Shown here piece by piece: positions 2,583 to 55,806 of a stretch of DNA of 62,650 nucleotides (position 1 is its first letter; each line of letters begins with the position of its first letter). The DNA is taken from positions 1 through 62,650 of the forward strand of contig CASICS010000002.1 of the NCBI GenBank assembly GCA_949373255.1, given 5' to 3'. This DNA comes from an uncultured SAR86 cluster bacterium. GTDB taxonomy: Bacteria > Pseudomonadota > Gammaproteobacteria > Magnimaribacterales > AG-339-G14. Both the position numbers and the translations under genes were made by a program. The notes under the pieces were generated by a model. That model was not told the DNA's origin. It did not search any database and was given only the letters and a program-made list of their open reading frames with translations.

Positions 2583-3425
2583 TTAATCGAGGTCACTTGC
2601 ATCGTGTCTTTCCACAATAGCATTATCATCTGGCCCGCTAGGCGCTCTATTTACTCTTGTCCCTCTTTTGAATGCAGGACGTTTAGCAATATCTTCAGCC
2701 CATCGTATAACGTTTTTATAAGATGCGACGTCTAAAAATTTAGCTGCGTTATAAGCATTTTTTAAAACTAACATCCCGTACCATGAACAAACAGCAATAT
2801 CAGAGATATTATAATCATCACCACATAGGTACTGCCTTGAATTTAGATTTTTATCCAATACATCTAATTGACGTTTAACTTCCATAGCAAATCGATTAAT
2901 TGGGTATTCAAATTTCTCGGGGGCATAAGCATAAAAATGACCAAAACCGCCGCCCAAAAAAGGAGCACTGCCCATTTGCCAAAATAACCATGACATGCAC
3001 TCAGCTCTTTCTGAGGGCTCGGTAGGTAAAAGCTCTCCAAATTTTTCTGCTAAATAAACCATTATTGCACCCGACTCAAAAATTCTAGTTGGAGGATTAG
3101 TGCTTACATCGAGAAGAGCAGGTATCTTTGAATTAGGGTTGATTCCAACAAAATCACTTCCAAACTGATCTCCTTCTCCTATATTAATTAAAAATGCGTC
3201 GTATTCTGCGCCTTCGTGTCCAAGTGCTAATAACTCTTCCAGCAAAATAGTTACTTTCATGCCGTTGGGAGTGCCTAATGAGTAAAGCTGTAAAGGATGC
3301 TTCCCCCTCGGTAGTTCTTTGTCATGAGTAGCTCCAGCAGTTGGCTTGTTTATATTGGCAAATTTTCCACCATTTTTACTATCCCATTCCCAAACTTCAG
3401 GTGGAGTATAAGTATCTTTTGTCAT
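2583..3425 (-). CDS. yghU: Glutathione-dependent disulfide-bond oxidoreductase (GST Nu class)
   Basis: YTPPEVWEW, GGKFANINKPTAGA, LYSLGTPNG, C-terminal ERHDASD. Confidence 0.93.
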   Translation of the reverse strand: MTKDTYTPPEVWEWDSKNGGKFANINKPTAGATHDKELPRGKHPLQLYSLGTPNGMKVTILLEELLALGHEGAEYDAFLINIGEGDQFGSDFVGINPNSKIPALLDVSTNPPTRIFESGAIMVYLAEKFGELLPTEPSERAECMSWLFWQMGSAPFLGGGFGHFYAYAPEKFEYPINRFAMEVKRQLDVLDKNLNSRQYLCGDDYNISDIAVCSWYGMLVLKNAYNAAKFLDVASYKNVIRWAEDIAKRPAFKRGTRVNRAPSGPDDNAIVERHDASDLD

Positions 3426-7117: not shown

Positions 7118-9016
7118 TTAAGCTATCGTTGTCTTAATTTTTTTCTTACTTAAACTCCAGTAAATTTTAAAGATTTTTAGAAAAAATAATCTAAAGGTTC
7201 TGTCAAAAAGAGAGACTTTTGAAATTTCTGATTTAACGTCAGAAATTTGTTTTCCTCTAATTAAGTTTCCAGGAAGAATTCCAGTTGCAGTTCCGTTCTC
7301 ACTGACTATATGACCTCTTTTGATAGTTGCTATATAACCTGTAGCATTTTGAACTAAACGTTTTCCTCCTAAAGGTAAATCATGAATCATTTTAGGATGA
7401 CTCACATTTAAATTATCAAAATCGATGATATTAATATCAGCTAACATACCTGGTTTGATTTCACCGCGATCAAATAAGCCAAAAGTTTCAGCAGTATCTT
7501 TTGTTTGTTTTTTAACTAACATCTCAAGAGGAAATTTCTTACCAGCCTCTCGGTCTCTTGCCCAGTGAGATAAGTTTGTTGTTGGCATACTTGCATCGCA
7601 AATTAGACCACAATGTGCTCCTCCATCACTCCCACCTGCAACAGAAGACTTAAGGCCATATGCTTGTTCGACAAAATTAAGTTTATAATTTTCATACGGA
7701 GTAAAGGCTGCATAAATAAGGTTTGTACCATTATTTTTCATCATTTCGTCGTACATTACCTCAAGTTCTGAGATCCCCTTTATTAAAGATATTGCTGCAA
7801 TACTATCTTCTTTCTTAGGTTCATAATTTGGAGGAGTCCCTAAGATAAATTGAGTTTTATAATTAGCAGTAAGCTTTGTTGGAAGTTGAACATCCTTTGT
7901 AATTTCTTCTCTGGTTTTAGTATTACTTTCATCAGCAAGTTTTTTTTCTATCTCTGACTCAAAATCAGGTTCTTGACTCAATAGCATATTTTTAAAATCA
8001 GGATTCTTCATGATTTCAAATTTTTGATCAAGCGGTAAATTTGAAATCTCTTTATAAGCAGGATATTGAACGAAAGGATTCAAAGAGCTTTCAAGACCAA
8101 ACATAAGACCTACATTTCTTCCAGGAAATTGAGGGCGGATATTTTTACCTTTAAGATAGTGTTCCTCTGCATATAAAATTGTTTTAGCTGCATCTCCGCT
8201 CGTTTGCAAAAAAGTCAAACCGCAGTCACTTTTATCGACATATTCTTTCATCCAAGACATTTCTATTTCTTCGTCCAACCAGTCTGATGTTATTTCCAAA
8301 GTACCTTCGCCAGCCTTATCTATACCAAAAGCCAGAGCTTTCATTTCTTCAGAACTAGCTTCAGTTCCTGGAACATATTTTCCATAAATATCTCTATGCA
8401 AAATAGTTCTTGAAGTACTGAAGCCTAAAGCACCTGCATTAATAGCTTCTGTTACAAGCTCTGACATTTTATTAATCTCTTTGTCAGAGGCATCAACTTG
8501 GTTTTGACATCTTTCGTGACCCATCACATAGCTTCTTAATGGTCCATGACCAATCATGAAACCTAAATCCATAACAAATTCTTTCTTATCGATTGCATCT
8601 AAAAACTCAGGGAAAGTTTCCCAGTCCCACTCAATGCCTTCATGCAGAGCGGCGCCCGGAATGTCTTCCACACCTTCCATCAATTGAATTAAAAAATTTT
8701 CATCGCCAGGTTTGACTGGTGCAAACCCAACTCCACAATTCCCCATAACGGCAGTCGTTACTCCATGCCAACTGGATGGTGTTAAGTATGGATCCCAACA
8801 TACCTGACCATCGTAATGTGTGTGAATATCAACCCATCCAGGCGTAACTAAATTACCTTTGGCATCAATTTCCTTTTTACCTGAATTTGCTACAAACCCT
8901 ACTAGTGAAATTTTTTCATCATCAATAGCAATGTCGCCAATGAACTGTTTTTTTCCAGATCCGTCTATAATTTTTCCATTTCTAATTACAAAATCATGCA
9001 TATTATTATTTCTCAT
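7118..9016 (-). CDS. N-acyl-D-amino-acid deacylase family amidohydrolase
   Basis: PGWVDIHTHYD, GNCGVGFAP, SDGGAH. Confidence 0.9.
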   Translation of the reverse strand: MRNNNMHDFVIRNGKIIDGSGKKQFIGDIAIDDEKISLVGFVANSGKKEIDAKGNLVTPGWVDIHTHYDGQVCWDPYLTPSSWHGVTTAVMGNCGVGFAPVKPGDENFLIQLMEGVEDIPGAALHEGIEWDWETFPEFLDAIDKKEFVMDLGFMIGHGPLRSYVMGHERCQNQVDASDKEINKMSELVTEAINAGALGFSTSRTILHRDIYGKYVPGTEASSEEMKALAFGIDKAGEGTLEITSDWLDEEIEMSWMKEYVDKSDCGLTFLQTSGDAAKTILYAEEHYLKGKNIRPQFPGRNVGLMFGLESSLNPFVQYPAYKEISNLPLDQKFEIMKNPDFKNMLLSQEPDFESEIEKKLADESNTKTREEITKDVQLPTKLTANYKTQFILGTPPNYEPKKEDSIAAISLIKGISELEVMYDEMMKNNGTNLIYAAFTPYENYKLNFVEQAYGLKSSVAGGSDGGAHCGLICDASMPTTNLSHWARDREAGKKFPLEMLVKKQTKDTAETFGLFDRGEIKPGMLADINIIDFDNLNVSHPKMIHDLPLGGKRLVQNATGYIATIKRGHIVSENGTATGILPGNLIRGKQISDVKSEISKVSLFDRTFRLFFLKIFKIYWSLSKKKIKTTIA

Positions 9017-9085
9017 TTGAATATTTTACCAAGAAACCATGTTGCTTTAAATTAAAAGCAAAACGTCTTAAAAATAAAAATTTAT

Positions 9086-9943
9086 TCAGGATGCCAAATT
9101 AGCAGATTTCCAGAATCTAGGGATAATCCAAGTTACAAAGATAGAGAAAAATATACCCAAACTATAACTAAAGAACATTCCTAGAAAGCCTTCCACTTCA
9201 ATATTTGCTTCAAGTTGAGTAATTAAAATCATACTAACAAACACGGTCAATACGCTTAATGATGATAAAAGAAATTTTTGTATTTTGCCTGAATTTAAAT
9301 GAATCTCTGAGAACCCAACAAACCAACCCGTCATTACTCCAAGAAACCAAATATTTGGTTCATGACCCTCATGACTTGGATAAGCAATATAGAAAATTAA
9401 CTGAAAGAGCAATATCAGTAACAACCAAATATGATTGCTTAAAGATTCATACACATTATTGATAACTGCAAAATTCCAAATAGCGAGGACTAAAGCTCCA
9501 ATAATTAAACCCGAAAGAACATCTCCAAAATCATGCACACCCAAATACATTCTGCTAAATGAAATTAATAGAATTAAGGTTCCAGCTCCAATAGAAATCC
9601 ATTTATTTTTCAGCTCATAAGCTAGCAATCCCCATAAAGTGACAGCTATTTGTGCATGACCGCTTGGCCAACCGTATGAAGTTCCTACTTTCGGATCCAA
9701 CATTAACTCTATTAATGGCCTAGGATCTTGAAAAAAATCTTTTAGAAAGCTGTTTATTAATCCGGAAATAAATAACAACATAGCAACTCTTGAAAACCTT
9801 GATGGCGACCAAAAAAAATATCCAAAAGTAATAAATAAAATTAAAAAAGTTGGATAGCCAAGCAATGAAATATTTTCAAAAAATATTGATAAAACTGGTG
9901 TGCGAATGTTTTCAACCCATGATAGATCATTCCAAATAGACAT
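9086..9943 (-). CDS. PAP2 family membrane phosphatase
   Basis: KxxxxxPRP, PSGH, SRMYLGVH motifs; several TM segments. Confidence 0.9.
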   Translation of the reverse strand: MSIWNDLSWVENIRTPVLSIFFENISLLGYPTFLILFITFGYFFWSPSRFSRVAMLLFISGLINSFLKDFFQDPRPLIELMLDPKVGTSYGWPSGHAQIAVTLWGLLAYELKNKWISIGAGTLILLISFSRMYLGVHDFGDVLSGLIIGALVLAIWNFAVINNVYESLSNHIWLLLILLFQLIFYIAYPSHEGHEPNIWFLGVMTGWFVGFSEIHLNSGKIQKFLLSSLSVLTVFVSMILITQLEANIEVEGFLGMFFSYSLGIFFSIFVTWIIPRFWKSANLAS

Positions 9944-9970
9944 AATTTATCCTCACTCCATATTTATTTA

Positions 9971-10603
9971 TCAAAGTAGATTATAAATCACAATAAAGTG
10001 CAATATTGCTGCCGCAATTACTAATATGTGAAAAAACTCATGAAAGCCAAAAACTTTAGGGAATAAAACCGGCACTTTAAAACCATAAGTTATGGCGCCA
10101 ATTGAGTAAATAGCTCCTCCTATCCCTATCAATGTCAATTTTAGAAAGCTTAATGAGGCGATTAATATTGGTATGAATGGTAAAGCTACCCAACCAGCAA
10201 TCAAATAGATGGACGCTCTCAAGAGACGATGAATATTTGAAAAGAAAATAGATTGGATAATTCCAATAAAAGCTACACTCCAAATAATTATTAATAATTT
10301 AGTTCCACTTTGTCCCGGCAAAGCTAAAATGCATATTGGTGTAAATGTCCCTGCAATCATCATAAATATGCCGCTATGATCTAATTTTCGAAGTTTCTTT
10401 TTTATTTCTTGCGTTGTATTCAGACGATGATAAAGAGCGCTAAATCCAAACATTGATAACAAGCCAATTGAGTAGGTTAAAATAGCGATGAATTGGGAAA
10501 GATTACTAGTTTTAAAAATTAAGATTAAGCATGGAATTATGGAGATAAAAAACATAAGCTGATGACTTATGCCGCGAAATCTTGGCTTACTAATACAATT
10601 CAT
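9971..10603 (-). CDS. Hemolysin III / PAQR family membrane protein
   Basis: SALYH, DHSGIF..IAGTFTP, FGFHEFFH. Confidence 0.9.
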   Translation of the reverse strand: MNCISKPRFRGISHQLMFFISIIPCLILIFKTSNLSQFIAILTYSIGLLSMFGFSALYHRLNTTQEIKKKLRKLDHSGIFMMIAGTFTPICILALPGQSGTKLLIIIWSVAFIGIIQSIFFSNIHRLLRASIYLIAGWVALPFIPILIASLSFLKLTLIGIGGAIYSIGAITYGFKVPVLFPKVFGFHEFFHILVIAAAILHFIVIYNLL

Positions 10604-10634
10604 TTTGTTTATTTAAACATGAAGAACAATTTGA

Positions 10635-10640
10635 TATCAT
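10635..10640 (+). promoter_or_regulatory. Extended -10 box of a probable leaderless transcript
   Basis: TGa-TATCAT 6 nt before the ATG at 10647; no SD. Confidence 0.5.
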
Positions 10641-10646
10641 CCAAAA

Positions 10647-11555
10647 ATGAATAAAAGGAAAGATGCAACTGCCGAAGGGATAGCTAAACAACGTTTGATT
10701 GAAACATTAGCCCATCCTAATAAGCGCGTCATAAATGATCCGTATGCTGCTAGATTCGTTAAAGGAGCTGGTTTGATAAAATTAATTGGTCATAAGCTCA
10801 ATGTTTGGTTGGGTCAAAAGTTAGTACCTGGTTTTCATGAGCATCTAATTTCACGTACTCGCTTTGTTGATGATTTGATTGAAAAAAGTATTTCCGCTGG
10901 AGTGGAACAATATGTCATCCTGGGAGCCGGATACGACATGCGGGCACATCGGCTCAAACTTTCACCTGCATTAAAAATTTTTGAAGTAGATCAACTAGAA
11001 GTTCAAGATAAAAAGCGTTCTAAACTACCTAAAGAATTACTCAATTCAGAAAATATCACTTATGTAAGTGTTGACTTCACTCGCCAATCTTTAGCAAAGC
11101 AACTTTTAGATGCCGGCTTCGATCAAAGCAAATCAACGATCTTTACGCTCGAAGGCGTATCTCAATACATCACTAAAGAAGCACTTGGTTCTACTCTCGA
11201 GGAGATGGCTAAGCTTACTCAAAAAGTGAGTTCATTTTTTTTCATATCTTATGTCGATGAACGTCTCAATGACAATCCCGAAGCCTGCTTTGGCAAAGGT
11301 TACCCAAAAGCTGCAAAACGTTATGCCTTGATAAAAGACTTAACAGCAAAAGTAGCTGAGCCCTGGATATCTTTTTATGATTGTGAAGAAATCAAAAACC
11401 TATTGTCGCAAAATGGTTACGCGATAAAAGAAGATGTAGTGTTAAGTGATCTAAACTCTCAGTACTTTGCTCCTGTTGGAAGAGCCCTTCCTGAAGATCA
11501 GTTATTTAACCTTGAGCGTTTTGTAATAGCAGAATCTAATAATCTCCCTCTATAA
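10647..11555 (+). CDS. SAM-dependent methyltransferase (LCM/YktD-like)
   Basis: DPYA, RTRFVDD, QYVILGAGYDMRAHR, FEVD, EGVSQY. Confidence 0.9.
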   Translation: MNKRKDATAEGIAKQRLIETLAHPNKRVINDPYAARFVKGAGLIKLIGHKLNVWLGQKLVPGFHEHLISRTRFVDDLIEKSISAGVEQYVILGAGYDMRAHRLKLSPALKIFEVDQLEVQDKKRSKLPKELLNSENITYVSVDFTRQSLAKQLLDAGFDQSKSTIFTLEGVSQYITKEALGSTLEEMAKLTQKVSSFFFISYVDERLNDNPEACFGKGYPKAAKRYALIKDLTAKVAEPWISFYDCEEIKNLLSQNGYAIKEDVVLSDLNSQYFAPVGRALPEDQLFNLERFVIAESNNLPL

Positions 11556-11678
11556 TTATTTACTTTGGCTATCGAATCATTGGATCCGCCGGAGGGGAGC
11601 CATAAAATTTAACTCTTCTTATGCGCTATGGTTTGTATGAGAAGAATCTTGATTTAATGATACTTAAAGACTAATTTA

Positions 11679-11770
11679 CTATTCCCACTCAATAGTAACC
11701 CAATTTAAAACCCTTATAGCATATAGGTTTCAAGGGTGTTGAAAAAAATGTGTAACTTTTGTGTAACTTC
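11679..11770 (-). repeat. att-like module 1: guaA 3'-end copy plus TGTGTAAC arm-like repeats
   Basis: 11681-11696 is identical (16 bp) to guaA 14050-14065; TGTGTAACT at 11749 and 11760. Confidence 0.85.
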
Positions 11771-12384
11771 ATTTTAGTATTTTAAAATTCCACCAAAAAA
11801 TAACTGGGGTTATCAGAACGGTTGGAAGCACCCACCATACCCATTCAGGTTCAAAAGGAGGATTAACAACTAAAACAGCTGTAATCACTGCAATAGTTCC
11901 TCCCATCATATTTGTTAAGTGTCTTGAAATTCTCTCTTTTCCTGTAGCAGAATTGTTTTTATAACTCCTAAAATCAGCATAACCCAAAGTAATAGATAAA
12001 AATCCGAAAACCAAAAGAACGATATATTGCGTATTACTATTCAAGAAATAGATTGCAGCTAATACCCACATTCCTATTCCTGAAAAAATCATTAAACAAA
12101 TAGCAATCCAATCCAAAATAGTTGCAACTCCTTTTCTATTTCTTGCAAAGCGCATTCCCGCAAAAGCTAAATAGAAAGAAAAGATAGCTATGAGAAACAA
12201 AAAGATATTACTGCTGATAATAGACATTGGAATAGCTGTTAAGAAGATAGTAGCCATACCCCAGAAGTATGTTCTACCTGAAAGCACATGAAGCTTTTTA
12301 CCTTTCTCAGATGAGAACTGCCAGAGCAGCACAAAACAGAGCAATTGTTCCAGCTATGATATGTATTGGTAATAGAAACTCCAT
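11769..12384 (-). pseudogene. DUF2306-like membrane protein with a +1 frameshift near codon 23-25
   Basis: ATG at 12384 gives MEFLLPIHIIAGTIALFCAALAVLI-stop (12307-12309); the other frame continues SSEKGKKLHVLSGRTY...HLTNMMGG; span 616 nt = 3n+1. Confidence 0.7.
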
Positions 12385-12465
12385 ACCCCCCCTTTTTTTT
12401 AACTTTAAAAAATTTTTGTAACTCTCTACTTGTCGACTTTACAGTTACTAAGTTAAGATTTCTAT

Positions 12466-12918
12466 ATGAATCTGCTCAACAATAAGAATCTCAAATGGAA
12501 GCACTATAATGAAGGTGATAAATTCGATTATCCTATAAAATATTCTGAATCTATTCTAGATGCGAGAGAGGATGGGCGTTTGGAGATATTAGTTAAGTGG
12601 GAACCAAATTGTTATTGTCATTTTCATAGGCATACTGCAGAAACTAGTTCTGTAGTTTTAGAAGGCGAGCTTCATGTCACCGATATCGACATTAAAACTG
12701 GAAAAGAAATTGGGAGGCGTTTAAGAGCTGTAGGAGATTTTGCACATAAAGAGCCGGGAGATGTGCATATGGAACAAGGAGGAGCAAATGGAGCTTTAGT
12801 TCTCTTCAATATTTATGCTCCTGAAGGCGACGGTAAATTAGCAGAATCTTTGAAGAAAGATGGTAGTGTTGCAAGCGCCTCAACTATGGCTAGAATTTTA
12901 AGAAAGCGCAGCAAATAA
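12466..12918 (+). CDS. Cupin domain protein
   Basis: HFHRHxxET..VLEGE and GDVHME cupin motifs; TAAGAT 6 nt before the ATG. Confidence 0.75.
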   Translation: MNLLNNKNLKWKHYNEGDKFDYPIKYSESILDAREDGRLEILVKWEPNCYCHFHRHTAETSSVVLEGELHVTDIDIKTGKEIGRRLRAVGDFAHKEPGDVHMEQGGANGALVLFNIYAPEGDGKLAESLKKDGSVASASTMARILRKRSK

Positions 12919-12928
12919 CTATATTTAG

Positions 12929-13011
12929 TTACTCCCACTCAGTAATTACCTTGTATAGAAACCCAATAGAATCAATAGTTTTAAGGCTTGTTATTTTTTT
13001 TGTGTAACTTC
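12929..13011 (-). repeat. att-like module 2: guaA 3'-end copy plus TGTGTAAC arm-like site
   Basis: ttactcccactcagtaattacc matches module 1 at 17/22; shared aaaccc..atag..ttt.aagg..tgtt; 14 bp ttttgtgtaacttc identical (12998-13011 vs 11757-11770). Confidence 0.8.
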
Positions 13012-13185
13012 TTATATGCCATAATCTAAATCTTCTCTTTAAAATCCTCTTTGTTTCCAACAACCTTCTATTTTCTTGTTACACAGTGTGTAAATCACAC
13101 TGAGTATCTTTTGGGTGACTGTCTCTTCCATTTAAGTACTCAATATTCAAATAATTCAGGAAAACTCTCTTTAGTCTTATAGACT

Positions 13186-14046
13186 TCATAAATTAGAAAT
13201 TTTACTAAGAACTGTTCCGGCTATCTTATCTTGAACTCTTGTTGCACTCCTCATAGCTTTTAAAATAATGGGCTCTTTTACTTCTTTGCTAAATTCCTTT
13301 TTATTTAAGAGATGCTTATACCATTCTAGAACTTTTGGATGTAATTTCTTAAAAGGATAACCAGAAAGAAAAAGCCTGTGGGTATATATAAACCAAGCTA
13401 TATCAAGTAATGATATTTGAACACCTAAAAGGTAGGGTTGCTTAGAAAGGTTAGACTCAAAATTATCATAAAGTTTTTTAAACTTAGAAACAGACTGGAT
13501 AACTGCTTCATCTGTTATTCCTTCTTCGTTAAAGTCTTTAAAAAACGTCAATTCCTTAATTTTATGACTGTCTTCCTTTCCTTGTATAGTTCCTGAATCC
13601 TCTTCAAGTTTTTCTATTGAGCTGGTTTTCTTTTTTCTTGCTTTGTTTCCAAAAAGAAAACGAAAACTAATGTTCCTCATATCAATATGAAGATCATCTT
13701 CTTCATTAAGTAATGTTGATATTAACTCTATGGACTCATTGGGGATTAGAGAAGGTTCAGGGAATTTCTTTTCTAAATATTTGAGTATATCGTTACTTTC
13801 TATATGGACTTCACCATCATCCACAAGCACAGGAACCAAAGCTCTTGGATTAATACCTAAAAACCAGTCTGAATAATTTTCGTCTGTAGCTAAATTTACT
13901 GGATGAGAAACCCATTCTATGCCCTTCAAATTTAAAAATATCCTCGTTTTTTGTGAGCAAGAGGAGTTACTAAAGTGAAGCAGATGAATACCTTTCCACT
14001 CTAGAACTTCTTTAGTTCGGATTTCATCTTTAATTAGCTGCGTCAT
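13186..14046 (-). CDS. Glutathione S-transferase family protein
   Basis: SSCSQKTR, INPRALVPVL, ESNDIL, SLLDI; start reassigned to the ATG at 14046 (MTQLIKD), 1 nt after the guaA stop. Confidence 0.85.
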   Translation of the reverse strand: MTQLIKDEIRTKEVLEWKGIHLLHFSNSSCSQKTRIFLNLKGIEWVSHPVNLATDENYSDWFLGINPRALVPVLVDDGEVHIESNDILKYLEKKFPEPSLIPNESIELISTLLNEEDDLHIDMRNISFRFLFGNKARKKKTSSIEKLEEDSGTIQGKEDSHKIKELTFFKDFNEEGITDEAVIQSVSKFKKLYDNFESNLSKQPYLLGVQISLLDIAWFIYTHRLFLSGYPFKKLHPKVLEWYKHLLNKKEFSKEVKEPIILKAMRSATRVQDKIAGTVLSKISNL

Positions 14047-14047
14047 C

Positions 14048-15610
14048 TCATTCCCACTCAATAGTTGCGGGTGGTTTGCTGGAAATATCATAAACCACTC
14101 TCGAAACCTTTGATATCTCATTGATTATTCGATTTGATACCAAGTTTAAAAAATCATGATCAAGTTTAGCTGCTCTAGCCGTCATAAAGTCTATGGTTTC
14201 TGCTGCTCTTAACGCTATGACGTATTCGTAACGACGGGCATCGCCAACTACGCCCACACTCTTTATCGGTAAAAATACTGCAAAAGCTTGGCTGACTTTG
14301 TCATACAGCTTATGTTTAACCAGCTCTTCCATATAAATGTGATCTGCTTCTTTTAAGATCTCTAATTTTTCTTTTGTAATATCGCCTAAGGTTCGGACTG
14401 CTAAGCCAGGGCCTGGAAAAGGATGCCTTTTGATTAAATAGTCCGGAAGACCAAGTTCTTTACCTATTTTTCTAACCTCATCTTTAAATAAAGAAGTTAA
14501 TGGCTCGACTAAAGGTAATTTCAAATAAGACGGTAAGCCACCAACGTTGTGATGAGACTTTATAACGTGTGCCTTGCCGTTTTTAACACCCGAAGATTCA
14601 ATGACATCTGGATAAATTGTACCTTGAGCTAAGAATGAAATATTTTTTAATTTTTTAGTTTCTTTCAAGAAGACATCAATAAAAGTTTTGCCAATTATTT
14701 TTCTTTTCTTTTCAGGGTCAGACTCCCCTTTTAAATTTTTGAGAAATAACTTCTCACTATCTGAAAAATTAATATTTAATTTTAAACCTCTTTTTAAATC
14801 TTTTTTAACTTGTTCGGCTTCGCCTTTCCTGAGAAGACCATTATCCACAAAAATACATTCAAGATTTTTTCCAATTGCTTTTGAAAGCAAAGCTGCAACT
14901 ACAGATGAATCAACGCCACCCGAGATTCCTAATAATACTTTCTTATCTCCGACTTGAGCTTGAATATCCTCAACGAGCGAATCTATAATATTTTTAGGTC
15001 GCCATTTTCCTGTGCATCCACAAATATCTCTAACAAAAGTTTTTAAGATTGTTTGTCCTTGTTGAGTGTGTGTGACTTCTGGATGAAATTGAAAGCCATA
15101 TTTTTTCAATTTAGCATTTTCAAAAGCAGCAATTGGACTATTTTTAGAAGACGCTACTTTTTTAAACCCTTTTGGCAACTTAGTGACTTTATCGCCATGA
15201 CTCATCCATACATTTAGATTTTTAGTTTTAGATTTCAAACCTTGAAAAATTTTTGCTTTTTGAAACGTTAATTGAGCATGCCCGAATTCTCGTTTAGAAG
15301 AAGAATCAACGTTACCACCAAAATATTTTGCCATAGTTTGCATGCCGTAACAGATTCCTAGAACTGGCAGATCGCTATTGAGGATTTTGGGGTCAAATTT
15401 TAAAGCTTTTTTAGTATTAACGGATTCTGGACCGCCTGACATTATTATTCCAGATGCCTGCATCTCATTAATTTTTTTAAATGAAGTTTCGTGTGGAACT
15501 ATTTCAGAATAAACACCTGCTTCCCTTATTCTTCTTGCAATTAGCTGAGTATATTGCGAGCCAAAGTCAAGGATGATTATTTTTTCAGATGTTATTTCTG
15601 TTTTCACCAA
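14048..15610 (-). CDS. guaA: GMP synthase (glutamine-hydrolyzing)
   Basis: LDFGSQY, GICYGMQ, SGGVDS, KSHHNVGGLP, KPPATIEWE; TTG start. Confidence 0.98.
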   Translation of the reverse strand: MVKTEITSEKIIILDFGSQYTQLIARRIREAGVYSEIVPHETSFKKINEMQASGIIMSGGPESVNTKKALKFDPKILNSDLPVLGICYGMQTMAKYFGGNVDSSSKREFGHAQLTFQKAKIFQGLKSKTKNLNVWMSHGDKVTKLPKGFKKVASSKNSPIAAFENAKLKKYGFQFHPEVTHTQQGQTILKTFVRDICGCTGKWRPKNIIDSLVEDIQAQVGDKKVLLGISGGVDSSVVAALLSKAIGKNLECIFVDNGLLRKGEAEQVKKDLKRGLKLNINFSDSEKLFLKNLKGESDPEKKRKIIGKTFIDVFLKETKKLKNISFLAQGTIYPDVIESSGVKNGKAHVIKSHHNVGGLPSYLKLPLVEPLTSLFKDEVRKIGKELGLPDYLIKRHPFPGPGLAVRTLGDITKEKLEILKEADHIYMEELVKHKLYDKVSQAFAVFLPIKSVGVVGDARRYEYVIALRAAETIDFMTARAAKLDHDFLNLVSNRIINEISKVSRVVYDISSKPPATIEWE

Positions 15611-15611
15611 G

Positions 15612-17078
15612 TTAGCTCATTCGGTAATTGGGAGCTTCTTTGGTCACGCTCACATCATGCACATGACTTTCTGTAATTCCAGAAGAAGTAATTTGAACAA
15701 ACTTAGGTTTTGTTTTCATTGTTTCGATGTCTTTTGAACCGGTATAACCCATACTTTGTCTCAATCCACCCAAGGTTTGATGCAAAGTAGTTTCAACCCA
15801 ACCTTTGTATGGCACTCGACCTTCTATTCCTTCTGGAACTAGTTTGTCGGATTGAGTAATGTTTCCTTGAAAATAGCGATCGCCTGAATTAGCTTCACCC
15901 GACATTGCTCCAACTGAGCCCATGCCTCGATAAGATTTATAACTTCTACCTTGATACAACTCTACTTGTCCAGGTGCCTCTTCCGTTCCAGCCAAGATTC
16001 CACCTAACATAACGGTGTCAGCTCCGGCGGCAATGGCTTTGGCGATATCTCCAGAAAATCTAATGCCGCCATCGGCTATAACTGGCACACCTTTTTTACC
16101 AATTGCTTTAACCACATTCGCAATGGCAGTAATTTGAGGCACTCCGACGCCCGTTACTATTCTTGTGGTACAAATTGATCCGGGACCAATTCCAATCTTT
16201 ACTGCATCAGCACCGGCTTTCACTAAGGCTAAGGCTCCTTCACCTGTGGCAACATTTCCACCAATAACTTGAAGATCTGGGTAAGTAGCTTTTACCAATT
16301 TGACCCTATCAATGATTCCTTTTGAGTGCCCGTGAGCACTGTCGACAACAATTGCATCAACTCCAGCTTGAACTAAAGCCTCAAGTCTTTCTTCGGTATC
16401 AGATCCATTGCCTATGGCTGCACCGGTTAATAGCCTGCCTTCGCTATCCTTGGAAGCAAATGGGAAATCTTTATTTTTATTAATATCTTTAAGAGTGACT
16501 AACCCTTTGAGTTTAAAATTATCATCGACTAACAGTATTTTTTCTATTCTATTTTGATAAAGTAAACCCTTAACGACATCAAGATCTTCATTCTCTTTAG
16601 CCGTAATTAATCTTTCTTTTGGAGTCATGATAGTGCCAACATTCGCGGCAAGATCCAATACGTTTCTAAAGTCTCTTGAAGTCACAATACCAACTAAATT
16701 ACCTTCATCCACTACCGGCATTCCTGAAATGTTTAGATCTTGAGTTAACTTGGTTAATTCACCGACTGTTTTATTTGAAGAAATGGTTATAGGATCTCTT
16801 ACAATGCCACTTTCAAATTTTTTGACAGCAGAAACCTCTTGCGCATGATCTTTAATGGACAAGTTTTTATGAATAATACCAATGCCGCCTAACTCAGCTA
16901 AGGCAATTGCCATTCTTGATTCTGTAACGGTATCCATTGCGGCCGATAGAATAGGAATTTTTAAAGATATATTTTTAGTTAGTTTGGTGGTTAAATCTGC
17001 CTCATGAGGAAGAACCTCAGAATAGTCTGGTACAAGAAGTACGTCGTCAAAAGTTAAAGCTTGTTCTAATAGCAACAT
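15612..17078 (-). CDS. guaB: IMP dehydrogenase
   Basis: [26 protein letters not shown]; CBS pair. Confidence 0.98.
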
Positions 17079-48348: not shown

Positions 48349-49401
48349 ATGACTTTTATTAAACCTTTAAATCATCATCCAAAATTAGAAAAAAATAATC
48401 TAGGATTAACCAGACGAGATTACGAAGGAGCTGTTTCGTCACTTTGCGCAGGTTGTGGCCATGATTCTATAAGCGCCTCAATTATCGAATCATGTTTTAA
48501 TTTAAATATAGAGTCATACAAAGTTGCGAAACTCTCGGGTATCGGTTGTTCTTCAAAAGCTCCTGCATATTTTCTTAATCAATCCCATGGATTTAACTCT
48601 GTTCACGGAAGAATGCCCTCAGTAGCCACAGGAGCTAATTGTGCAAATAGAGATCTCTTATATTTAGGCGTTTCTGGAGATGGAGATAGTGCCTCAATAG
48701 GAATAGGTCAATTTATTCATGCAATAAGAAGGCAGGTAAACATGGTTTACATAATTGAAAATAATGGAACATATGGCCTTACTAAGGGCCAATTCTCTGC
48801 AACGAATGACCTTGATTCAAAAAATAAATATGGCGATGATAATTTATTTAAACCTATAGATTTAGCAACAATGGCTATTCAACTAGGAGCTACATACGTA
48901 GCAAGAAGTTTTTCAGGAGATAGAGAGCAACTGATTCCTTTAATTATGGGAGCAATGCAGCATAAAGGCTTTGCGCTCCTAGATATAATCAGTCCTTGTG
49001 TAACTTTCAACAATCATGCTGCTTCTACTAAAAGCTATGACTATATTCGTGAACATAATGAAGCAGTTGGTAAAACTGATTTTGTTCCCTTGGGAGAGGA
49101 AATTAAAACATCATATGATGAGGGAACTTCTGTAGAGGTAAATCTACATGATGGCTCTAAATTATCATTGGAAAAAACTGATAAAAACTTTGATCCATGT
49201 GATGCAGGAAAGTCTCTAAATTTTATGAGAGAAAAAGAAAAGGAAGGAAAAGTATTAACTGGATTACTCTATGCCGATAGCACAGCAAAAGATTTAATAG
49301 AAACTTTAAATATGACAGAAACTCCGTTGAATCAATTGGATCAGGATTTGATATGTCCAGGAAGTAAAATTCTTGACTTAATAAATAAGGACTTAAGTTA
49401 A
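48349..49401 (+). CDS. 2-oxoacid:ferredoxin oxidoreductase beta subunit (KorB-like)
   Basis: LCAGCGH, SGIGCSS, HGR, GDGD, YGLTKGQ, SPCVTFN. Confidence 0.93.
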   Translation: MTFIKPLNHHPKLEKNNLGLTRRDYEGAVSSLCAGCGHDSISASIIESCFNLNIESYKVAKLSGIGCSSKAPAYFLNQSHGFNSVHGRMPSVATGANCANRDLLYLGVSGDGDSASIGIGQFIHAIRRQVNMVYIIENNGTYGLTKGQFSATNDLDSKNKYGDDNLFKPIDLATMAIQLGATYVARSFSGDREQLIPLIMGAMQHKGFALLDIISPCVTFNNHAASTKSYDYIREHNEAVGKTDFVPLGEEIKTSYDEGTSVEVNLHDGSKLSLEKTDKNFDPCDAGKSLNFMREKEKEGKVLTGLLYADSTAKDLIETLNMTETPLNQLDQDLICPGSKILDLINKDLS

Positions 49402-55730: not shown

Positions 55731-55806
55731 TGGTGGGTCGTATAGGATTCGAACCTATGACCAATTGATTAAAAGCCAACTGCTCTACCAACTGAGCTAA
55801 CGACCC
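55731..55806 (-). tRNA. tRNA-Lys (anticodon TTT)
   Basis: GGGTCGTTAGCTCAGTTGGTAGAGCAGTTGGCTTTTAATCAATTGGTCATAGGTTCGAATCCTATACGACCCACCA, 76 nt with encoded CCA; TATAAT upstream at 55816-55821. Confidence 0.97.

Follow-up and report, generated by a model that had tools for sequence, protein, structure and literature searches.

The resistance island GIsul2 integrates at the 3' end of guaA, at 5'-GAGTGGGA-3', with its integrase gene int on the guaA side, and also carries a resolvase gene, resG (PMC9376610). The GIsul2 integrase excises and integrates a further unit, CR2-sul2, which has no integrase of its own and is bounded by a third att site (PMC9376610). Here we describe a locus in an uncultured bacterium of the SAR86 cluster (order Magnimaribacterales), on a 62,650-nucleotide (nt) stretch of contig CASICS010000002.1 from assembly GCA_949373255.1 (hereafter the window), in which the last codons of guaA recur at two places downstream of the gene. 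The region is a real, partly decayed cassette array and part of a widespread variable system with a rare integrase. At a probability of roughly two in three, we consider it to be a tandem array of small integrase-less integrative cassettes at an attachment site formed by the last codons of guaA, with a lambda-type integrase supplied in trans by rarer elements.

On the account given in the relevant passages of PMC9376610, GIsul2 is the closest known system, with the same target and the same principle. As in GIsul2, insertion is at the 3' end of guaA, the direct repeats share the GAGTGGGA core, and three att sites in a row delimit a unit without an integrase. A tyrosine integrase on the guaA-proximal side is found in relatives only (four genomes of the order, G004, G034, G041 and G092, and Hydrogenophaga) and not in the window or its assembly. 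Unlike GIsul2, where these passages place the excisionase-like alpA, G004 and G034 have a resolvase in the open reading frame (ORF) after int. The marine units also differ from GIsul2 as there described in consisting of 0.1-1.5-kb cassettes that hold one gene and a long arm module, in forming arrays of up to 5 cores, in carrying metabolic and detoxification genes rather than resistance genes, and in their streamlined marine plankton hosts, as opposed to Shigella, Acinetobacter and IncC plasmids. A tblastn search of PLSDB with three integrases, marine or relative, gave 0, 33 weak and 6 matches, none of them GIsul2-like and with listed hosts unlike those of GIsul2; the one matched record inspected was not GIsul2. 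The shared GAGTGGGA target may be inherited or convergent.

Tycheposons of Prochlorococcus and additive flexible islands target the 3' end of a tRNA or tmRNA gene (bioRxiv 10.1101/2020.12.28.424599; PMC10872708). They are the ecological parallel of the guaA locus: as portrayed in passages of these two sources, they share with it a streamlined marine or freshwater plankton host, the use of a conserved gene's 3' end by tyrosine-recombinase elements, ecologically useful cargo, and repeated gene-end copies that mark successive insertions, including tandem forms. The target here is instead guaA, a gene mentioned nowhere in the text of bioRxiv 10.1101/2020.12.28.424599 or PMC10872708. Additive islands also differ in scale, at 4-200 kb as cited in PMC10872708, the passages of which describe no one-gene cassettes with arm modules.

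Integrons are the nearest functional analogue. In both systems, cassettes without an integrase, most of them holding a single gene, are arrayed at one site downstream of a fixed transcription unit, and each has a distal recombination site; the two also share cargo types (GNAT, GST and small membrane proteins) and an unexplained origin of the cassettes. A preliminary description of this DNA had called the locus integron-like, which holds as an analogy only. Unlike integrons, the locus has no IntI, its own genome having one Xer-like PF00589 match on another contig, and no attC-type site, with no inverted core copy in 20 regions and an inverted repeat in the tail that lacks covariation. As in lambda, recognition seems to depend on arm sites; the end of a housekeeping gene serves as the platform, and the integrase is non-resident. 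As for co-orientation of the cassettes in the window, the cupin gene runs opposite in direction to guaA. Work on cis-mobilizable elements (CIMEs) and on SGI1 tandem arrays has reportedly found att-bounded elements without an integrase that accumulate at one site and depend on the integrase of a related element. Those tandem units at a single attachment site are similar to ours, and are said to be deletion derivatives of large conjugative or mobilizable islands in Firmicutes and Enterobacteria; in contrast, the units here mostly hold a single gene, and we saw no conjugation or mobilization genes.

Marine microbiology has yet to explain how 1-Mb genomes that nearly lack mobile-element machinery gain and exchange genes. 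The guaA locus offers a testable route: its 8-nt target is universally conserved and lies where an essential gene ends, its one-gene cassettes have a recognizable recombination module, and its integrase can come from outside. It would extend the principle of GIsul2 and CR2-sul2 from clinical resistance islands to the open ocean, and would provide a compact integrase-and-site pair whose natural target is present in most bacteria. We found no description of guaA cassette arrays in marine plankton in the literature searched, a search that did not take in supplements, where such loci are possibly listed.

The guaA end and its copies

The guaA gene for GMP synthase (520 amino acids (aa); Pfam GATase and GMP_synt_C) lies on the minus strand at 14048-15610, with guaB upstream at 15612-17078, and guaA was detected in 41 of 41 related genomes. 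Its terminal codons, read on the minus strand as ...ACTATT GAG TGG GAA TGA, form the attachment core. Core 1 (14048-14065, ...ACTATT GAGTGGGA A TGA) is both the functional end of guaA and the left junction of a GST cassette. Core 2, on the same strand at 12929-12949, reads AATTACT GAGTGGGA G TAA and joins the right end of the GST cassette to the left junction of a cupin cassette. The distal end of the array is core 3 (11679-11699, also minus), which reads TTACTATT GAGTGGG AATAGTAA with the stop codon TAG and has an 8-nt inverted repeat flanking GAGTGGG. The cores are spaced 1119 and 1250 nt apart. Positions 11681-11696 and 14050-14065 carry one and the same 16-mer, ATTCCCACTCAATAGT, to which 12931-12946 corresponds at 81%. 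A scan of the window for the pattern TCCCACTCARTA gave 3 matches, every one of them on the plus strand, where 0.02 were expected and 0 of 100 shuffles reached 3; it has no further match in the whole 928-kb assembly (26 contigs, 77% complete). The genome is 1.2 Mb in size at 34% GC and belongs to an order of four small-genome families.

Minus-strand translation of the three copies gives ATIEWE-TGA, VITEWE-TAA and VTIEWE-TAG. The preliminary description had reported exactly this, the last guaA codons recurring at two distal places with three different stop codons and the EWE-stop reading kept in all, and its coordinates and sequence statements were all verified. It had also recognized that a module spread over the genome would speak against a link to guaA. 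The bare 8-mer GAGTGGGA occurs in 17 copies genome-wide, and the combination of tail and core is confined to this locus, at the two distal copies.

Three cargo modules, encoding a GST, a cupin and a membrane protein, make up the partly decayed array of the window. The GST gene (286 aa; Pfam GST_N_2, 68.6 bits) occupies 13186-14046 on the minus strand and has its ATG 1 nt past the guaA stop; Pfam thus bears out its earlier label. The body of the cupin cassette (12422-12918, plus strand) comprises the cupin-like gene at 12466-12918 and 44 nt upstream. Here the earlier label stands on a weak match, to Cupin_7 at 23.7 bits, under the cut-off of 27. On the minus strand, 12381-12421 holds a relic of the cupin cassette's tail, with AGAGTTACAAAAA and an A/T run, from which the inverted repeat and the core are gone. 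The membrane-protein gene follows at 11769-12385 (minus) and is frameshifted; the ORF list gives it as 11769-12344. It had been labeled DUF2306, a label that is not confirmed: neither the window ORF nor an intact homologue has a Pfam match at E<=1 other than a chance-level one to TssN. Its ATG at 12385 meets a TGA after 25 codons. Most metagenome contigs are one base shorter at 12313-12315 and thereby regain a frame that agrees with the homologue in G158 (G numbers denote genomes of the order, L numbers extracted loci and X numbers metagenome runs). The window gene is either a pseudogene or the product of an assembly error.

What had been described as a single second unit proved to be two cassettes. 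Homology mapping delimits a cupin module (12941-12422) and a membrane module (12377-11765), and the 44-nt linker between them retains the AGTTACAAAAA word and no core. In G058 the cupin cassette ends with its own tail and a core with one mismatch, GAGCGGGA. Because the linker relic is coreless and the G058 cassette has its own tail and core, we conclude that the cupin and membrane cassettes were fused by loss of the intervening core. That loss, the frameshift in the membrane gene and the absence of one repeat from the tail of the GST cassette are the marks of decay in the window.

Tail modules and integrases

Both distal cores carry a homologous tail on their guaA side, as the preliminary description had noted, with TGTGTAACTT about 55-70 nt from the cores. 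This word occurs at 11749, 11760 and 13001, with one unrelated match at 48997 (0.08 expected). Tail 3 (11700-11769, minus strand) contains two copies of AAGTTACACA at an 11-nt period (11749-11769), then an A/T run, CCCTTGAAACC..AAGGGTTT, and 17 nt leading to the core. Tail 2, which belongs to the GST cassette (12950-13101, minus strand), has one AAGTTACACA at 13001-13010, AAAAC..GGGTTT, and an inverted pair GTTACACA/TGTGTAA at 13078-13101. Contigs of X9, X10 and X12 contain an additional TTTTGTGTAAC after 12997 in tail 2; the usual form thus has two copies, and the window's tail 2 has lost one of two 11-nt arm repeats. The design of the tail is thus two direct repeats of 9-10 nt spaced 11 nt apart, an A/T run, AAACCC..GGGTTT, 17-18 nt, and the core.

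A survey of 54 stop-bearing, non-guaA cores taken from 120 stretches extended this design to other genomes. A tandem 8-mer repeat lies 65-80 nt upstream of the core in 36 of the 54 modules, with an 11-nt period in 35 of those 36, compared with 9.6% of random positions and 2 of 56 guaA ends in the controls. Perfect 5-bp inverted repeats are present in 19 of 54 tails, versus 13% at random positions. The consensus of 46 aligned tails reads AGTTACAAA..TTACAAA, an A/T run, AAACCCTT, about 12 nt, AAGGGTTT, 17-18 nt, and ACTATT GAGTGGGA. Left out of this alignment were L041_6868, G005_9470, G152_2305, three tails from G074, G151_3782 and L081_4046; seven of these eight have neither repeat nor inverted repeat, and L081_4046 has the repeat. 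The repeat word itself varies among tails and includes GTTACA(A/C)A, CATACAAAC, TGACACA, TTGTAAA and ACTACA(A/C)A. Inverted half-sites ACTATT/AATAGT on either side of GAGTGGG that are complementary at 4 or more of 6 positions occur at 39 of 56 guaA ends and in 31 of 54 modules, against 6.7% of random 6-mers, a control that ignores the stop-codon constraint on the right side; we therefore use them only to describe core 3.

In the P arm of a lambda-type attachment site, a pair of direct repeats separated by one helical turn lies a set distance away from a short core, and the tail looks like such an arm. A fold of the attC kind or a terminator was considered and rejected, as RNAalifold found 0 pairs in the 46 aligned tails. 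Pairing between AAACCC and GGGTTT was likewise at background level (75.4% of cells versus 74.5% in shuffles, with 142 of 500 shuffles as high). Because there is no covariation, we take the inverted repeat to represent two conserved half-sites in duplex DNA rather than a fold.

Two observations on tails concern tRNA sequences. On contig C22 of G000, the genome of the window itself (15650-15770, outside the window), a tRNA-Pro gene is followed by a hairpin, TATAAGGGTTTCAGACGG...AACCCTT, containing the AAGGGTTTCAGA word that is common to many tails; this may be due to chance, represent a terminator in general use, or point to related elements that target tRNA genes. In locus L035 of G005, a fragment of a tRNA 3' end, GGTTCGAGTCC..., lies in an array tail just before the core at about 7440-7500 (oriented 3040-3104), and ARAGORN found no tRNA gene at this locus.

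A cognate integrase, for which the preliminary description had proposed a search, was found in other genomes directly after guaA, in elements of its own that end in similar tails. In G004, of the same genus as the window, and G034, of another family, proteins of 430 and 406 aa that match PF00589 start about 150 nt past the guaA core, and in both a serine resolvase follows. Aligned from end to end, the two integrases share 29% identity (E = 1e-50). A profile made from them detects the family in 4 of 201 genomes of the order (G004, G034, G041 and G092), at 406-430 aa and directly after guaA in every case. Scores of the guaA-adjacent integrases against PF00589 were 34.4 and 53.4 bits, with a cut-off of 27.1. 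Among the 41 relatives scanned, most encode just two Xer-like recombinases. The integrase elements are 3.3-7.1 kb long and end in a tail of the same design with a second core; three integrase-less units stand behind the element in G004 and three in G034. Outside the order, Hydrogenophaga bisanensis and a gammaproteobacterial metagenome-assembled genome (MAG) have int after guaA, an arrangement that a Thioglobus relative does not show.

In an alignment of six integrases (A2), R257, K296, R372, H373 and Y404 are invariant in all six, and we read these as the probable catalytic residues. Most tyrosine recombinases have histidines at the HxxR motif and at the later H/W position. At the expected histidine positions the six proteins have the invariant residues Y369 and G394-T395.

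The integrase is linked to the guaA core in metagenomes as well. Among the best 80 of 151 metagenome relatives, 69 had at least 150 nt upstream of the match, and GAGTGGGA lay no more than 700 nt upstream of the integrase in 41 of these 69, a minimum figure since some cores are variants, for example GAATGGGA in L133. Most of the core-linked integrases follow ...KPPATIEWE*. Some follow a tail, which places the integrase element within an array. The integrase element of L149 ends in AGTTACAAAC/CTACAAAG repeats of the same type as the window's tails. The integrases nearest to that of G004 (41-46% identity; contigs L082-L099 and the Thioglobus MAG L060) mostly have no upstream GAGTGGGA and no tRNA nearby, and this subgroup seems to use another target. 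A link to tRNA genes was not upheld, with no tRNA gene in five array loci or beside the 29 integrase relatives that lack an upstream core.

Variation among relatives and within populations

The preliminary description had proposed to test in related genomes and metagenomic reads whether the units vary in number and cargo and whether they end sharply at the module, and the outcome in both relatives and metagenome contigs was positive. When the 10 kb downstream of guaA were compared in 20 genomes of the same genus and family, 10 of the 20 had extra same-strand GAGTGGGA copies with tails bracketing different genes, among them G007, with a degenerate core copy that lacks a stop; no opposite-strand copy was seen in the 20 regions. 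A pattern scan found at least 2 clustered same-strand copies, and from 2 to 5 in each, in 22 of 50 family genomes, and the first copy was checked to be the guaA end in 13 of the 22. The 35 intervals between cores measure 119-6,351 bp (median 1,135 bp), and 22 are no longer than 1.3 kb. These core counts are lower bounds because exact matching misses degenerate cores such as those noted above in G058 and L133. Other cargo in the arrays includes a HAD hydrolase, MerC, GNATs, a methyltransferase, a P-loop kinase-like protein, an amine oxidase, a GIY-YIG protein and several ORFs without a family. Some units have no cargo and consist of arms alone between two cores, at oriented positions 2987-3106 of L068 in G058 (119 bp) and 4239-4415 of L035 in G005 (176 bp). 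In G001, whose guaA is 91% identical and which is the nearest relative, there is just one core, with other genes behind it. At its locus (L034) the guaA stop is followed by AGAAGTTACAAAGTTAAAAAAAT, an arm-repeat word with an A-run and no second core, which is possibly the relic of an array.

Cargo is shared across families. A DNA search of 11650-14047 against 201 genomes of the order found the GST, cupin and membrane genes in none of the eight congeners and in more distant genomes instead, those of other families having guaA proteins 60-65% identical to that of the window. The GST gene is 90% identical over its ORF to a copy in G074, of a second family (f2; guaA 64-65%). The membrane gene is 90-91% identical over 11765-12377 to G152, G150 and G158 of the same family, and 82-86% in a third (f3). 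For the cupin gene, identity over 12422-12941 is 88% to G058, of another genus, and 84% in f2 and f3. There too the cargo genes begin right at a core, their first bases agreeing with those in the window, at other positions of the array. In G074 the GST gene stands after an internal core, preceded by a junction of the core 1 type (core, then ATGAGATGACGCAG), and in G058 the cupin gene stands after the second core, at a junction similar to core 2 (core, then GTAACTAAA..ATTATTT). In G126 two cores enclose the membrane gene as a discrete 745-bp cassette; the gene follows an internal core in G150 and lies directly behind guaA in G158. A DLH-hydrolase cassette is likewise common to G004 and G034. 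Tails 94-96% identical to tail 3 occur behind other cargo in G170 (f2) and G064; such near-identical tails behind three different cargos indicate that cargo and tail reassort. The stop codon and the bases following it travel with the cargo, and the tail lies on the other side of the core, so that the point of exchange would fall within GAGTGGG(A). The earlier proposal that each copy was once the functional end of guaA can hold at most for the stop-codon side of the core, as the stop and the sequence beyond it move with the cargo and the same junction recurs elsewhere.

The array also varies within populations. Parts of the stretch were found in 20 public runs from 10 studies, 8 of which contain half or more of the sampled words, and contigs of four marine runs were placed on 9000-16500. 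In X1, possibly the source sample, one form lacks exactly the GST cassette: behind the guaA end come the 17 bases found after core 2, and next comes the cupin gene. The full form of the array coexists with this GST-less form in the same run. In X9, X10 and X12 the guaA end is joined, a few bases past its stop, to the membrane gene (joints 12374/12377 to 14039/14043). A joint from 11697 to 13152 in X10 (side 24) and other short-sided joints within guaA were set aside as too weak. The preliminary description had regarded the array as time-ordered. The nested forms (guaA joined to the membrane gene, guaA joined to the cupin gene, and guaA followed by the GST and the cupin-membrane pair) fit addition on the guaA side, excision or loss equally, and the array does not reveal which cassette arrived first, because the same nesting results whether cassettes integrate at any core or are excised between any two.

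Mechanism and competing explanations

Each cassette starts with a stop codon and its cargo, mostly a single gene, and continues into a P-arm-like tail some 70-100 nt long and the core. In the mechanism that we propose, a lambda-type tyrosine integrase would recombine, within GAGTGGG(A), a circular cassette (tail-core-cargo) with the guaA end or with any core of an array. With the incoming cassette guaA would gain a new stop, and often a cargo ORF whose start coincides with this stop or lies just past it; such an ORF could be read from the guaBA transcript. Rarer 3.3-7.1-kb elements at the same site, with int directly after guaA and the serine resolvase next, would encode the integrase, and the small cassettes would move in trans because the integrase is absent from the window's assembly. 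On this model the cassettes may be mobile at present. The preliminary description had offered eroded islands and cassettes mobilized in trans as alternatives; both parts have a place, since the array has discrete cassettes as well as decay. More broadly, and tentatively, streamlined marine bacterioplankton could possess a second gene-cassette system parallel to integrons and based on a lambda-type integrase, in which single-gene cassettes with an arm module of about 90 nt and an 8-nt guaA core are captured serially at the guaA end, partly expressed from the guaBA transcript, and exchanged between families whose core genes are about 65% identical, with the integrase a rare transient guest in about 2% of genomes.

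Several observations weigh against the proposal that these are cassettes moved in trans. The window's assembly has one PF00589 match, which is Xer-like and on another contig, and no guaA-type integrase, in an assembly that is 77% complete. A phage or satellite origin was examined and discarded, as neither the integrase profile nor the tail-core pattern finds anything in IMG/VR, and no transfer vehicle is known. Homology between cargo genes at 90-91% identity ends at the ORF borders, unlike what is expected of a cassette moving as a single block, and two of the metagenome contigs described above have their joints at 12374/12377 rather than at core 2. One X10 contig runs from the GST start back into core 2 and tail 2 (14051 to 12933), with a short side of 53 nt; it may equally be a circle junction, a tandem copy or a GST cassette behind another cassette with a like tail, since near-identical tails do stand behind different cargo. 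Decay is also widespread: the repeat pair is missing from 18 of the 54 modules, many of which have decayed, the G074 GST cassette has only about 23 nt from its stop to the next core, and in G158 (L066, 3990-5785) the membrane and amine-oxidase genes are fused, overlapping at ATGA with no tail or core between them. These two genes are separate cassettes in G126, G170 and G008, and the fusion looks like fixation of cargo through loss of the recombination module. With regard to expression, an ORF of at least 60 aa on the same strand lies within 30 nt of 23 of 110 cores, which indicates that read-through is not general; at 12 of 25 TGA-type junctions, an ORF either overlaps the stop or begins no more than 9 nt from it.

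This decay would be the expected state if the array were the remains of successive full-size guaA islands that had their own integrases and eroded, the small units never having been mobile as such, then or now. The truncated tails, fused cassettes and frameshift are plain signs of erosion, short units in G007 and G005 keep the left arm of the integrase element (GTAATAACAC.CCCT..AAC) and a TTGTAAA-type tail without an integrase, and the 119-bp unit of G058 has arms only. We nevertheless think this explanation unlikely. One-gene cassettes with exactly the same left junction recur across families at 88-91% identity and at different array positions, GST-less and full forms coexist in one run, and, with arrays in 22 of 50 species as against the integrase in 2 of 49 other family genomes, many independent and nearly identical erosions would be needed. 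Homologous recombination in an additive flexible island could instead swap cassettes through guaA, the tails and the downstream flank with no current site-specific recombination. The independent reassortment of cargo ORFs and tails, with tails 94-96% identical behind different cargo, is what such a process might leave. It is an improbable account, as transfers cross families whose guaA is about 64% identical, too divergent for homologous arms, and only the 8-nt core and short motifs are shared, with unit boundaries at the core.

The recombinase might also be another one. Nearly all array genomes encode just two Xer-like recombinases, and a host enzyme such as XerC/D, as for dif modules and integrative mobile elements exploiting Xer (IMEX), or an unrecognized enzyme, could move the cassettes and leave the guaA-adjacent integrase elements as mere co-tenants. 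This strikes us as slightly less probable still, given that the integrase elements end in a tail and core of the cassette type and that integrases track the guaA core across distant hosts. Paired arm-type repeats, moreover, are a hallmark of lambda-type integrases and not of Xer sites. Finally, the copies could be chance repeats, or a terminator or a repetitive extragenic palindromic (REP)-like element that resembles the guaA end, as might be suggested by the AAGGGTTTCAGA-containing hairpin behind tRNA-Pro on contig C22. This is scarcely credible against an expectation of 0.02 core copies, the occurrence of tail plus core at this locus only, the preserved EWE-stop frame, and the same strand and locus in every genome examined. 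The trans-mobilized cassette array therefore remains the reading that we prefer.

Past the last core, a conserved flank with the sequence TAAATTAGTCTTTAAGTATCATTAAATC... occupies 11647-11678 (minus strand). The same flank is found after the single or last core in G003, G006 and G016 and after the first core in G004, and one X1 contig spanning 9000-11807 joins flank, core 3 and tail 3. A further GAGTGGGA copy outside the array, at 8625-8632, has no tail and lies within a 632-aa ORF (7118-9016), where it is conserved as coding sequence in G001 and G005. Rfam and tRNA scans gave no match in the array region, and the sole tRNA of the window is a tRNA-Lys at 55731-55806.

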